Shown here in pieces: positions 1,687 through 62,267 of a stretch of 64,000 nt of DNA. Under the pieces are notes generated by a model that saw nothing but the letters and a program-made list of their open reading frames with translations, had not been told where the DNA came from and did no database searches. The stretch lies in the NCBI GenBank assembly GCA_035545635.1, contig DASZXY010000013.1, positions 184,207-248,206 of the forward strand, read 5' to 3'. A program made the translations under genes and the position numbers. The stretch's first letter is position 1, and each line of letters starts with the position of its first letter. The DNA is from Mycobacteriales bacterium. Lineage in GTDB: Bacteria > Actinomycetota > Actinomycetes > JAFAQI01.

Positions 1687-1701
1687 TCTGACGGGGCGTC
1701 A
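1687..1701. promoter_or_regulatory. Palindrome TCTGACGGGGCGTCA (site A of the recurring TGACG-N3-CGTCA motif)
   Basis: Inverted repeat TGACG-GGG-CGTCA between the two KstR boxes. It is the same motif as sites B-G listed below. Confidence 0.5.
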
Positions 1702-1721
1702 ACAGTTGTGGCCGAAAAAAC

Positions 1722-1735
1722 TAGAACGTGTTTTA
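1722..1735. promoter_or_regulatory. KstR-type operator box 2 (TAGAACGTGTTTTA)
   Basis: Matches TnnAACnnGTTnnA and lies about 55 bp upstream of the fadA5-like start. Confidence 0.6.
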
Positions 1736-1789
1736 CTCGGTTCCGGAGCCTCGAATCCGGGGACTCCGGTACTCCCTGAAGGGCATGTC

Positions 1790-2953
1790 ATGAGCGAAGC
1801 GGTGATCGTCGAGGCCGTCCGGACTCCGATCGGAAAGCGCGGCGGCTGGCTCGCCGGGCTCCACCCCACAGCCACGCTGGGCCACGTGCAGCGCGAGGTC
1901 ATCAGCCGCGTCGGGATCGACCCCACGCTCGTGGAGCAGGTCGTCGGCGGCTGTGTCACCCAGGCCGGCGAGCAGGGCAGCAGCATCACCCGTTACGCGT
2001 GGCTCGCGGAGGGACTCCCCCACACCGCGGGGGTCACCACCATCGACTGCCAGTGCGGCTCCGCCCAGCAGGCCAACCACTTCATCGCCGGCCTGATCGC
2101 CGCCGATGCCATCGACATCGGGATCGCCTGCGGCGTCGAGATGATGTCGCGTGTCGGCCTCGGCGCCAACGTGATGAGCGGCCCCGGCGTACCTCGTCCG
2201 GAGAACTGGGACGTCGACCTGCCGGACCAGTTCACGGCCGCCGACCGCATCGCGCAGGATCACGGGATCTCGCGGGAGGATCTCGATGCGTTCGGCGTCC
2301 TCTCCCAGCAGAACGCCGCCCGGGCCTGGGCCGAGGAGCGGTTCAAGAGCCAGATCGCCCCGATCGAGGCGCCCGTGCTCGGCGAGGACGGCAAGCCGAC
2401 CGGCGAGACCAAGCTGGTCGACCGCGACCAGGGGCTGCGCGAGACCACGATCGACAAGCTCGCGTCCCTGAAGCCGGTCCGAGAAGGAGGCTTCCACACC
2501 GCCGGTACGTCGTCGCAGATCTCCGACGGCGCCGCGGCAGTGATGCTGATGTCGGCCCAGAAGGCCAAGGAGCTCGGCGTCACACCGCGCGCCCGGATCG
2601 TGTCACAGGCACTCGTCGGCGACGAGCCGTACTACCACCTCAACGGTCCGATCGCGGCAACCACGCGAGTGCTCGAGCGCTCAAAGATGTCGATCAGCGA
2701 CATTGACCTGTTCGAGGTCAACGAGGCATTCGCATCTGTCGTCGTCAACTGGCGCAAGGCGCACGACGTCGACCCGGACAAGGTCAACGTCAACGGCGGA
2801 GCGATCGCGCTCGGTCACCCAGTCGGCTCGACCGGCAGCCGGCTGATCACGACCGCACTCCACGAGCTCGAGCGCACCGGCGGCTCGACCGCACTGATCT
2901 CGATGTGCGCCGGCGGCGCGCTCGCGACCGGCACGATCATCGAGCGGATCTAA
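1790..2953 (+). CDS. fadA5: Steroid 3-ketoacyl-CoA thiolase (acetyl-CoA acetyltransferase family), FadA5-like
   Basis: Thiolase fold ([18 protein letters not shown], the [12 protein letters not shown] active-site region). The C-terminus ...[15 protein letters not shown] is near-identical to Mtb FadA5. The ATG at 1790 gives MSEAVIVEA; the longer track ORF from 1667 is an upstream extension. Confidence 0.9.
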
Positions 2954-2960
2954 ACACCCC

Positions 2961-3008
2961 ACGAAATCGCTCCGCTTCGCTTCACGATTCCGCGGGGGCC
3001 CCGAAAGG
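2961..3008. repeat. Repeated spacer element R1 (ACGAAATCGCTCCGCT...CACGATTCCGCGGGGGCCCCGAAAGG)
   Basis: The 48-bp fadA5-echA spacer is near-identical to R2 (33837-33882) and shares its core with R3, R4 and R5. Confidence 0.7.
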
Positions 3009-3014
3009 ATTGTC

Positions 3015-60003: not shown

Positions 60004-60023
60004 TCACCACATGACCGACGGCA

Positions 60024-60637
60024 TGTCAACCAACTCCTACGCGGTGCTCGGAATGCTCGCCCTACGGCCGTGGACGCCGTACGAGCTCACCCAGCAATTT
60101 CTTCGCAGCCTTTCCTGGTGCTGGCCCGTCTCGGAGCGCCAGCTCTACACCGAACCCGAAAAGCTGGTCGGTCTGGGCCTTGCGAGGGTCCAGTCCGCCG
60201 ACAACGGCGCTCGCGCCCGGCGGCAGTACTCGATTACTCCCGCCGGGCGAAAGGCCCTCAAAGAATGGCTCGGCACCCCCACCACTGCGCCTCGAGTCTT
60301 CAACGAGCCGCTGCTACGAGTGCTCTACGCGGATCAGGGCGACCAGGCTGATCTGCTGCAGGCACTCGTCGGCCTACGCGAGGAGATGCTCGCGCGGTTC
60401 GAGGTCGGCCGAGAGCGGTCCCTCGAGTACCTGGAGGAACGCGGCCCGTTCCCGGACCGGGCACACCTCATCGCGATCTTCGCCGACCTGGGCCAGCGCA
60501 TCACCACCGTCATCGACGAGTGGGCGTCGGATTCGATCCGCGAAGTGAAGACGTGGCCGAGCACGAAGAGCCTGGGCATGACTTCCGCAACGCGGCGGAC
60601 CCTCAAACGGGTGGTGGACGCCGCCCATCCCGCCTGA
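60024..60637 (+). CDS. PadR-family transcriptional regulator
   Basis: PadR winged-helix motif AVLGMLALRPWTPYEL. An ATG at 60012 is also possible. Confidence 0.8.
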
Positions 60638-60654
60638 TGGCAGAGACGCCCGTT

Positions 60655-60767
60655 CGTATGTGACATAGGTGTCGTGAATTACGACCCGAATGTCACATAC
60701 GTGTTGGATATTGCGACACCTATGTCACATGCGGCACCGGTGGCACAACACCTATGTCACATGCGAT
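60655..60767. repeat. Cluster of four TATGT(G/C)ACATA palindromes, including a 17-bp perfect inverted repeat (ATGTGACATAGGTGTCG / CGACACCTATGTCACAT)
   Basis: Lower-GC 150-bp spacer between convergent padR and aldehyde dehydrogenase genes. Confidence 0.75.
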
Positions 60768-60790
60768 ACGGCGCGAGAAGCCGGTAGCGC

Positions 60791-62239
60791 TCAGCCGGTG
60801 TAGCCCATGGGCATGAGGATCGACTTGAGCTCGCAGAAGGCGGCGAGGCCTTCGGGACCGTCCTCGCGACCGATACCGGAGCACTTGTAGCCACCGAACG
60901 GCGAGCCCATGTCGAAGGCGTACCAGTTGATGCCGTAGGTGCCGGTGCGGACCTTCGTCGCGATCTCGTAGCCGTGGTCGACATCCTGCGTCCAGACCGA
61001 GCCGGCAAGACCGAAGTCGCTGTCGTTCGCAATCGCGACGGCCTCTTCCTCGGTGTCGTAGGGCAGCAGGGAGAGGACCGGGCCGAAGATCTCCTCCTGC
61101 GCGATCGTCATCTTGTTGTCGACGTCGGCGAAGACGGTCGGGGCGACGTACCAGCCGGTGTCGAGACCGGCCGGCCGGGTCCCGTCGAGCACGAGCCGCG
61201 CTCCCTCGGCCTTGCCCTTCTCGATGTAGCCCTCGACGCGGTCGCGCTGCCGCTCGGCGACCAGCGGGCCGAGCTGCGTCGCCGGGTCCGACGGATCACC
61301 CACGACGAACATCTTCGCGGCCTCGGTGATCGCCTCGGTGATCTCGTCGTAGCGGTTCCGCGGCGCCAGGATCCGAGTCTGCGCGACGCACGCCTGCCCG
61401 GAGTTCATCAGGCCGGAGAACGCGATCATGAACGCGCTCGATGCGAGGTCGACGTCGTCGAGCAGGATCGCGGCCGACTTGCCGCCGAGCTCGAGCGAGA
61501 CGCGCTTGAGCCGCTCGGTCGCGAGCGAGCCGACCTTGCGACCAGCCGCAGTCGAGCCGGTGAACGACACCTTGTCGACGCCGGGGTGCGTGACGAGGTA
61601 CTCGCTCACCTCGCGGTCCGCCGGTACGACGGAGATGACGCCCTCGGGCAGCCCCGCCTCGACCAGCAGCCCGCCGAGCATCAGCGAGTCGATCGGCGTC
61701 TCTGGGGCCGGCTTCAGCACCACGGTGCAACCGGCGAGCAGCGCCGGGATGACCTTGTTGACCGCGATGAACAGCGGCACGTTCCACGGGATGATCGCGG
61801 CGACGACGCCAACCGGCTCGCGACGTACCTTGCTGATGCCGAACGCGCCGCTGCGCTGCTCCTCCCACGGGAAGCTGTCAGCCAGGCCCGCGAACACGTC
61901 GAGCGCGCCCTTCGCCGGCGTGTACATCATCATCTCGACGGTCGACGGCGGGGCGCCCATCTCCGAGGAGATGACCGTCTTGTAGTCCTCGATCCGCTCG
62001 GCAAGCAGGTCGGCGAACTTCGCCAGCACCTTCGCCCGCTCACTCGGCGGCGTGGTCGGCCACGGTCCGTGGTCGAAAGCCTGCCGGGCGGCAGCAACCG
62101 CCGCGTCGATGTCCGCCTCGACGCCCTCGGGCACCGTGCCGACCACCTCGAGCGTCGCCGGAGAGCGCACCTCGAAGGTCTGGCTGGTCGACGGCGCGAC
62201 CCACTTTCCGCCGATCAGAAGCTGGTCGTATGAGGTCAT
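60791..62239 (-). CDS. Aldehyde dehydrogenase (NAD(P)+)
   Basis: ALDH motifs (ELGGKSAAIL, catalytic Cys in NSGQACVA, EEIFGPV). Confidence 0.9.
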   Translation of the reverse strand: MTSYDQLLIGGKWVAPSTSQTFEVRSPATLEVVGTVPEGVEADIDAAVAAARQAFDHGPWPTTPPSERAKVLAKFADLLAERIEDYKTVISSEMGAPPSTVEMMMYTPAKGALDVFAGLADSFPWEEQRSGAFGISKVRREPVGVVAAIIPWNVPLFIAVNKVIPALLAGCTVVLKPAPETPIDSLMLGGLLVEAGLPEGVISVVPADREVSEYLVTHPGVDKVSFTGSTAAGRKVGSLATERLKRVSLELGGKSAAILLDDVDLASSAFMIAFSGLMNSGQACVAQTRILAPRNRYDEITEAITEAAKMFVVGDPSDPATQLGPLVAERQRDRVEGYIEKGKAEGARLVLDGTRPAGLDTGWYVAPTVFADVDNKMTIAQEEIFGPVLSLLPYDTEEEAVAIANDSDFGLAGSVWTQDVDHGYEIATKVRTGTYGINWYAFDMGSPFGGYKCSGIGREDGPEGLAAFCELKSILMPMGYTG

Positions 62240-62249
62240 GTCGCCATTA

Positions 62250-62267
62250 TGTGACGACCCGTCAGAT
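62250..62267. promoter_or_regulatory. Palindrome TGTGACGACCCGTCAGAT (site F)
   Basis: TGACG-ACC-CGTCA, in the divergent spacer between the aldehyde dehydrogenase and the lipoprotein gene. Confidence 0.5.

Follow-up and report, generated by a model that had tools for sequence, protein, structure and literature searches.

An odd-centered palindrome, (A)TCTGACG-N3-CGTCAGA(T), recurs upstream of catabolic genes in a 64-kb stretch of DNA from a Mycobacteriales bacterium (contig DASZXY010000013.1; the whole stretch of 64,000 nucleotides is called the window here). The palindrome is enriched in the window, is restricted almost entirely to intergenic DNA, is conserved at orthologous genes of distant Actinomycetota, and sits on core promoters in a recurrent geometry. 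We predict with near certainty that it is a genuine protein-binding operator. The explanation that we favor, and consider reasonably likely as a whole, is that it is the operator of a homodimeric helix-turn-helix (HTH) repressor of the TetR family with a TetR_C_38 (PF19352) ligand domain, whose gene would lie outside the window. This repressor would run a dispersed lipid/steroid-type regulon of acyl-CoA ligases and dehydrogenases, enoyl-CoA hydratases (ECHs), and DUF35-Ltp aldolase/thiolases, together with Amidohydro_2 and Amidohydro_3 enzymes, F420-type luciferase-like oxidoreductases (LLMs), NMO-family oxidoreductases, aldehyde and alcohol dehydrogenases (ALDHs and ADHs), and SDRs.

The gene content of the window, mapped from codon usage and annotated with Pfam, is that of a lipid/steroid-type catabolic region, with P450, thiolase, ECH, acyl-CoA ligase, DUF35-Ltp, NMO, LLM, amidohydrolase, and ALDH/ADH genes and an ABC transporter. 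(An exact-protein look-up with the window ALDH gave no match.) We searched all 64 kb with the pattern TCTGACGNNNCGTCAGA (TCTGACG-N3-CGTCAGA; the palindrome is also given as ATCTGACGGGTCGTCAGAT) at ≤2 mismatches and found six matches, at positions 1687, 14096, 22052, 27808, 41543, and 62250 (sites A to F). By chance, 0.58 matches would be expected, and in 100 dinucleotide shuffles the count never rose to six. Each of the six lies between genes, even though 93% of the window is coding (6.9% non-coding; binomial p ~1e-7). At ≤3 mismatches there are nine matches, eight of which are intergenic, including site G (56678..56694) and an additional candidate at 6453..6469; about 5.5 three-mismatch matches are expected per window, but only ~0.4 in intergenic DNA. 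A first-pass annotation of this DNA had described sites A to F as near-identical repeats in spacers, and the same six were recovered. Its seventh copy, site G (TCTGAAAAGGTGTCAGA), is a plausible site in that it is intergenic and has the same spacing, but its three mismatches make it a weak one. The half-sites it had claimed at 43664 and 48142 find no support, since they match nothing past 5 to 6 bases, and the sequence at 43621-43634, close to the first of these, is a KstR-type box.

The palindrome is found at the same genes in related and in distant genomes. The closest protein match (95%) is from a metagenome-assembled genome also named "Mycobacteriales bacterium" (GCA_036268405.1; locus L001), followed by relatives at ~79% (L002 and L003) and Frankia sp. 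R43 at 76%. The 95% relative has kept sites C and B, and its site B counterpart is perfect. In both 79% relatives, Amidohydro_2 starts 20 nt after a site, despite a different upstream gene, and a further site precedes an ALDH gene (at 17591 in L003). In Frankia sp. R43, sites precede Amidohydro_2 and a CoA-transferase gene, and another lies in an ALDH/LLM spacer. Among Amidohydro_2 orthologues, which extend down to 52% protein identity, 19 of 20 have a site with ≤2 mismatches within 90 nt upstream of the start, and these include genes from Streptomyces, Actinomadura, Frankia, and Acidimicrobiia. By the same limits, 5 of 7 DUF35 orthologues have a site, again including Streptomyces and Acidimicrobiia, and an NMO homologue in a Streptomyces (L092) has a perfect one.

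An exact-pattern scan with one genome per species gave at least 120 loci, and the counts that follow are among the matches listed. Approximately 98 of 120 are from Actinomycetota (~55 from Streptomyces and relatives, ~35 from Acidimicrobiia, and the rest from other Actinomycetes), and the 22 non-actinobacterial loci look like chance matches. Of the actinobacterial sites that could be tested, 89 of 95 are intergenic. The genes beside them fall in the families of the window: LLM, SDR, acyl-CoA dehydrogenase (ACAD), AMP-ligase, Amidohydro_2, Amidohydro_3, ECH, ALDH, zinc-dependent ADH (Zn-ADH), Ltp thiolase, DUF35, CoA-transferase III, and NMO. DoxX-like membrane proteins and NDP-forming acyl-CoA synthetases are also recurrent neighbors, and many of the loci contain several additional near-perfect sites.

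A frequency matrix of 68 distinct sites shows that the three central bases of the palindrome are free. In 74% of these sites, which lie in DNA of roughly 67 to 73% GC, the base just outside the pattern, which the search did not select, is A (T on the opposite side), compared with 36% in the non-actinobacterial matches. Because this outer A/T flank is conserved, the element is a 19-bp palindrome, ATCTGACG-N3-CGTCAGAT. Flanks beyond the 17- to 19-bp core are unrelated between copies, and a mobile repeat is thereby excluded. A dispersed mobile or REP-like element would account for many near-identical copies in one genome, but the copies share just this core and are tied to orthologous genes across classes; chance is opposed by the six sites seen where 0.58 were expected and by shuffles that never reached that number. 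We therefore give almost no credence to either. The first-pass annotation had named a coding-sequence background and a mobile repeat as outcomes that would speak against an operator, and what we find instead are sites almost exclusively in intergenic DNA and without conserved flanks.

The position of the palindrome relative to promoters is similarly constant. In actinobacterial promoters the -10 box is TANNNT, and leaderless mRNAs begin 5 to 9 nt after it; the promoters described here were read by this rule and are not the output of a tool. (A scan for E. coli-type sigma-70 promoters around site C found nothing.) The start codon is ≤40 nt from the site in 112 of 158 site-gene pairs, and the recurrent architecture is TANNNT 5 to 9 nt before an ATG or GTG. 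Three arrangements are seen. In the first, the operator lies 0 to 7 nt upstream of the -10 box, as at site C on both strands, at the amidohydrolase genes of all clades, and at sites B, F, and G. In the second, the -10 box is within the variable center, as in DoxX genes (TCTGACGTACCGTCAGAttcATG). In the third, the -10 box lies over the left arm and the start codon occupies positions 10 to 12 of the 17-mer, as on the minus strand of site E (TAATCT-GACGGG-GTG) and in an Actinomadura locus, L044 (ACTGACGGTATGnCAGA). The DoxX-like genes start 2 to 3 nt past a perfect palindrome in five Streptomyces loci (L015, L035, L053, L058, and L114), and the center of these palindromes is always TAC, which makes a -10 box TACCGT inside the operator.

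In all three arrangements, a bound dimer would occupy the place needed by RNA polymerase, and occlusion is therefore the simplest mechanism. On this reading of the promoters, the palindrome very probably mediates repression. The CTGAC and GTCAG half-sites are 10 bp apart, center to center, which would put two recognition helices in successive major grooves. With the operator on the -10 box, and often on the +1 or the start codon of leaderless genes, the bound dimer would exclude RNA polymerase, and at site C one dimer would shut two divergent promoters. Release is probably by an acyl-CoA pathway intermediate, although this step is speculative.

We also considered whether the symmetry might belong to an RNA hairpin, acting as a terminator, an attenuator, or a stability element. 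Fold energies of the palindromes (-8 to -12 kcal/mol in context, for a GC-rich stem of 7 bp and a loop of 3 nt) are no better than those of shuffled sequences (z -1.1 to +1.05), nothing resembling a terminator was called around site C, and there were no Rfam matches. Conservation is seen in the outer A/T flank, while the loop is free to vary. Because they lie upstream of divergent leaderless genes, the palindromes are mostly untranscribed. Several copies are followed by TTT, as a terminator might be, but we regard a hairpin function as very improbable.

Site C (22052..22068) is a perfect palindrome at the center of a 50-bp divergent spacer. On the minus strand, the -10 box TAGGGT (22045-22040) is 7 nt before ATG 22032, which begins the operon of Amidohydro_2 (20815-22032) and Amidohydro_3 (19083-20807) genes (19083..22032, minus strand). 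On the plus strand, the -10 box TAGACT (22071-22076) is 6 nt before ATG 22083 of the gene for a 725-amino-acid esterase/peptidase_S9-like hydrolase (22083..24260, plus strand), an arrangement also present in the 95% relative. Both genes look leaderless. Judged by its predicted operators, the Amidohydro_2/Amidohydro_3 pair is the one with the most consistent regulation across taxa. Site B (14096..14112, TCTGACGGGTCGTCATA; 1 mismatch) is a full 17-mer with the right arm CGTCATA, and its last two bases are the start of the -10 box TACTTT (14111-14116) of the ECH gene (ATG 14121 or GTG 14124) in an operon with SDR and ADC-like protein genes (14121..16605, plus strand); on its other side is a divergent ferredoxin/Zn-ADH operon. 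At site F (62250..62266, TGTGACGACCCGTCAGA; 1 mismatch), the arm continues on the minus strand into cATAAT, and 6 nt then intervene before the aldehyde dehydrogenase gene (60791..62239, minus strand), whose ATG is at 62239. Site G adjoins GATAAT in an acyl-CoA ligase/LLM divergent spacer.

Site E (41543..41559, TCTGACACCCCGTCAGA; 1 mismatch) contains the GTG start (41550-41548) of the minus-strand DUF35-Ltp operon (39911..41550), which comprises a DUF35 gene (ChsH2-type OB/zinc ribbon, 41098-41550) and an Ltp-type thiolase gene (39911-41101), and the -10 box TAATCT (41562-41557) of this operon overlaps one arm. The divergent LLM gene (41591..42490, plus strand; ATG 41591) has its -10 box TAATCT (41579-41584) 19 nt downstream of the site; its product is an F420-type luciferase-like oxidoreductase, which matches its nearest NCBIfam model, the Rv2161c family, below the cut-off. 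Overlapping the end of site E is a perfect 10-bp inverted repeat (41557-41584, AGATTAGCGC-N8-GCGCTAATCT) that occurs once in the window and carries a TAATCT -10 box in each arm, one for DUF35-Ltp and one for the LLM gene; it could be a second operator or merely two mirrored promoters. The RNA fold of 41531-41600 has z = -2.56.

Site A (1687..1703, TCTGACGGGGCGTCAAC; 2 mismatches) is a full 17-mer in which the outer bases of the right arm are replaced (CGTCAAC). It lies in the divergent spacer of a P450 (cyp125-like) and a thiolase (fadA5-like) gene, with a KstR-type box on either side. Site D (27808..27824, CCTGACGAGGCGTCAGA; 1 mismatch) is between an F420H2 quinone reductase gene (minus strand) and the gene for an NMO-family oxidoreductase (27914..29044, plus strand), which has a GTG start at 27914 and a GGAGG ribosome-binding site; a protein bound there may form a roadblock or exert its effect from the -35 region. 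The additional weak candidate at 6453..6469 (ACTGACGGGCTTTCAGA; 3 mismatches) is upstream of an LLM gene at 6532-7512.

The setting of these genes raises the question of how the palindrome relates to the steroid regulators KstR (Rv3574) and KstR2 (Rv3557c). Both are repressors of the TetR type, bind short palindromes at the promoters of scattered catabolic operons (P450, thiolase, ECH, ACAD, Ltp, and NMO genes) and are relieved by CoA-thioester intermediates. The system described here is like them in its short palindrome, its dispersed catabolic regulon, and its candidate TetR repressor. The window contains KstR-type boxes at 1661-1675 (read from the sequence), 1722-1735, 14051-14064, 17831-17844, and 43621-43634. 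The first two flank site A and the third is beside site B, which agrees with the earlier statement that the palindrome co-occurs with KstR boxes at two loci. The statement that the motif itself is different also holds: the KstR operator is TnnAACnnGTTnnA and the KstR2 operator is AnCAAGnnCTTGnT, in contrast with the CTGAC/GTCAG half-sites and odd 3-bp center of the palindrome, and the 68-site matrix has no CAAG/CTTG core. (For KstR2, the matrix was compared with the consensus quoted in the first-pass annotation.) The TetR_C_38 candidate is far below the NCBIfam cut-off for KstR, and its relatedness to KstR is undetectable beyond the HTH. The range of the palindrome takes in Streptomyces and Acidimicrobiia, and the enzymes at the core of its regulon, Amidohydro_2/3 and F420-type LLMs, do not belong to the canonical steroid set. 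With half-sites that differ and a candidate protein unrelated beyond the HTH, the palindrome system would stand outside the KstR and KstR2 regulons.

Other KstR-type boxes were observed in passing. The box at 17831-17844 is perfect (TAGAACTTGTTCTA), and the first NMO paralogue (17866) begins 22 nt after it; the box at 43621 is upstream of a gene encoding only a cyclic-nucleotide-binding domain. In six loci of the Acidimicrobiia type (L172, L188, L193, L144, L149, and L156), a KstR-type box, cTAGAACacGTTCTAG, replaces the palindrome upstream of Amidohydro_2 or LLM homologues, and another locus (L182) has both elements. Orthologues with a KstR-type box in place of the palindrome suggest that the two regulons exchange targets.

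The candidate for the cognate protein is the TetR_C_38 family. In the Actinomadura locus L044, the gene for a 215-amino-acid member of this family (4357-5004) and the next gene, for an acyl-CoA synthetase, both start inside ACTGACGGTATGnCAGA. The protein has the domains TetR_N PF00440 (E 1.1e-7) and TetR_C_38 PF19352 (E 4e-54), and the same pair is precomputed for hundreds of homologues; at E below 1e-30 the family comprises ~200 clusters at 50% identity. The family lacks both an NCBIfam name and a close solved structure, and no paper mentioning the domain was found in the literature searched. An AlphaFold2 (AF2) model of the protein (pLDDT 90.7; 10 helices) is a confident TetR fold, and its best PDB matches are TetR proteins, with EthR first and acyl-CoA-binding FadR proteins next. 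From Streptomyces to Acidimicrobiia, homologues with as little as 37% identity retain the recognition-helix region, VID(V/I)ARxAGTSPATFYQYF. Homologues are abundant in Streptomyces and relatives and in Acidimicrobiia, which are the clades rich in the palindrome, and family members are present in site-bearing loci of Streptomyces, Actinomadura, and Acidimicrobiia. Their gene neighborhoods contain ChsH2/DUF35, ECH, ACAD, Ltp, NMO, IpdAB-like CoA-transferase, F420H2 quinone reductase, DoxX, and acyl-CoA synthetase genes.

The DNA around TetR_C_38 genes is rich in sites. The 571 kb around 80 metagenomic members contain 8 perfect sites, 23 with 1 mismatch, and 29 with 2 mismatches, compared with 0, 0.1, and 1.35 in shuffles; the total is 60, where about 1.5 would be expected. 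Among TetR_C_38 genes that are not of the Streptomyces type, 11 of ~42 have a site (≤2 mismatches) just upstream, where ~0.1 would be expected by chance, and the geometry of these sites is that seen at target genes (e.g., CCTGACGGGTCGTCAGT-TACCCT-7 nt-ATG in L203). Nearly all of the ~37 Streptomyces-type genes begin TAA(G/A)CTGACGnnATGACAG, which is one intact half-site across the -10 box and +1. This association makes TetR_C_38 a candidate cognate family in which we have moderate confidence.

The first-pass annotation had proposed that the palindrome is the operator of a second regulator, TetR- or IclR-like, layered on the steroid/lipid regulon. The operator is supported by its conservation at distant orthologues, its intergenic placement on core promoters, and its distinctness from KstR boxes. 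For the regulator, TetR now has a candidate by association; no candidate of the IclR type emerged, and the window has no IclR gene. The autoregulated gene that the annotation suggested looking for has a possible counterpart in the TetR_C_38 genes elsewhere that carry a site in their own promoter, but none is present within the window.

Several observations weigh against a TetR_C_38 repressor acting in this manner. By tblastn, the window has no TetR_C_38 gene and no TetR gene of any kind, and just 4 of ~98 actinobacterial site loci among the matches listed have a family member within 8 kb. Such scarcity is expected for a global regulator, yet it is no positive evidence. About 12% of the genes neighboring TetR_C_38 genes also have a site, compared with 26% of TetR_C_38 genes themselves, which is an excess of ~2.5-fold (odds ratio 2.5; Fisher p = 0.049). 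Since the neighbors carry sites too, the TetR_C_38 genes could be members of the regulon instead of its regulator. One homologue (L022) is without a site at its start. As for mechanism, no convincing -10 box can be placed at sites A and D, and the mode of action there is uncertain. In several promoters the left arm CTGACG is 16 to 17 nt from the -10 box and usable as a -35 element, and the palindrome could have an activating or dual role.

This last point is the basis for supposing that the site binds an activator, or that CTGACG is simply a -35 element, with no repression involved. The amidohydrolase promoters, where CTGACG precedes TANNNT by the canonical -35 spacing, fit such a role, but at other genes the palindrome overlaps the -10 box itself (as in the DoxX genes) or the start codon (site E; L044), which is incompatible with activation, and a -35 hexamer would need no strict two-fold symmetry. 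We consider this improbable.

The observations on the protein itself would be accounted for if the palindrome were the genuine operator of some other unlinked factor (another TetR, or a MarR-, IclR-, or GntR-type protein) and the TetR_C_38 gene merely one of its targets. Consistent with this, the frequency of sites upstream of TetR_C_38 genes is only modestly above that of their neighbors, most sites have no regulator near them, and the window, which has no TetR, does have a PadR-like gene (59993-60637) that is 1.6 kb from site F. However, there is no site at ≤3 mismatches upstream of this PadR-like gene, which we rejected as the regulator, and no other transcription-factor family is recurrent near the sites. 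A Pfam scan of 150 small open reading frames beside sites found no transcription-factor family enriched (HTH_3/31, HTH_24, and sigma-70, 2 each), which indicates that the regulator is not usually adjacent to its sites; a search with a TetR(B) seed and a regular expression for TetR HTHs likewise found almost no TetR genes beside perfect sites. The invariant recognition helix of TetR_C_38 parallels the invariance of the operator across classes, and the two taxonomic ranges coincide. We judge a different factor to be unlikely, though a good deal less so than an activator, and retain the TetR_C_38 repressor as the favored explanation.

Two other candidates were rejected as regulators. A stand-alone cyclic-nucleotide-binding protein (43189-43515, minus strand), which lies within the catabolic cluster together with an 806-amino-acid GGDEF-EAL protein (37375-39795, minus strand), has no HTH. 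SARP/BTAD genes beside the Streptomyces amidohydrolase genes are lineage-specific, and their products bind direct repeats. In several Streptomyces, such a gene is divergent from or near a palindrome-bearing Amidohydro_2 gene (L025, 1-693; L017, 5806-7998), and its product may be a lineage-specific additional layer of control. A conserved 280-amino-acid protein of the window (52262-53104, minus strand; motif ...NRWYE(D/R)DH...) has no Pfam or NCBIfam match, and genes for its homologues adjoin palindromes, divergent from SDR genes, in Streptomyces (L004, L006, L066, L097, and L104).

Among regulators of known function, the FadR/YsiA protein of Bacillus, FadR of Thermus, and FdmR of mycobacteria belong to the TetR family, repress beta-oxidation-type genes, and have acyl-CoA ligands. 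FadR structures match the AF2 model of the TetR_C_38 protein with a TM-score of about 0.6 to 0.75 at 13 to 16% identity, and FadR boxes as published differ from the palindrome described here. EthR (Rv3855) is the closest solved structure to the model (TM 0.79 to 0.88; root mean square deviation, 2.5 A; 18% identity) and has HTH similarity to the protein (E 2.6e-5). The operator of EthR is long and non-classical and is bound cooperatively by an octamer, and EthR regulates one neighboring gene, with no regulon. No Mycobacterium sequence is among the best 120 TetR_C_38 homologues. A CRP/FNR-type site (TGTGA-N6-TCACA or TTGAT-N4-ATCAA) can be set aside, as the core here is CTGAC-N7-GTCAG and TGTGA is found on one arm of site F only. 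Additional TetR regulators over steroid/lipid clusters have been described, namely SRTF1 of Pimelobacter (Nocardioides) simplex and Mce3R of Mycobacterium tuberculosis (PMC7062782, PMC7807495, PMC11667970). SRTF1 acts locally through a 22-bp palindrome beside its own gene (PMC7062782), in contrast with a 17- to 19-bp palindrome at many loci, and Mce3R is a double TetR with a non-palindromic operator (PMC11667970), unlike the palindrome here. Tandem "double TetR" proteins of 435 to 486 amino acids with two TetR_C_38 profile matches each were also observed (L071, 1617-2927; P0376, P0377, P0382-P0387, and others); this architecture resembles Mce3R, and one such gene is ~2.6 kb from a perfect palindrome.

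The kind of system proposed here, a TetR repressor with a palindrome and a catabolic regulon, is thus known, but the regulon itself, which we take to be real, is apparently undescribed; text searches of the literature, whether for the half-sites or for degenerate versions of the motif, yielded primers and unrelated matches only. In its broadest form, the proposal is that the palindrome and TetR_C_38 constitute a master switch across Actinomycetes and Acidimicrobiia, the two major classes of Actinomycetota, for an uncharacterized pathway of Amidohydro_2/3, F420-type LLM, DUF35-Ltp, and CoA-dependent beta-oxidation enzymes, interlocked with the KstR regulon and in some lineages swapping promoters with it. 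We put this forward tentatively, as something that may well prove too broad.

If the proposed regulon is correct, it would be a third layer of control, beside KstR and KstR2, in actinobacterial steroid/lipid catabolic clusters, and it would give a probable function to TetR_C_38, a widespread and unnamed TetR family. The 19-bp operator is nearly invariant, which would allow the regulon to be read from any actinobacterial genome, and, given the ligand, the operator-repressor pair could become an orthogonal inducible switch or a biosensor. The contents of the regulon point to a conserved, unstudied pathway with metal-dependent amidohydrolases and F420-type oxidoreductases, and the regulon would delimit this as a new pathway whose substrate would be sterol-, terpenoid-, or alicyclic-lipid-like.

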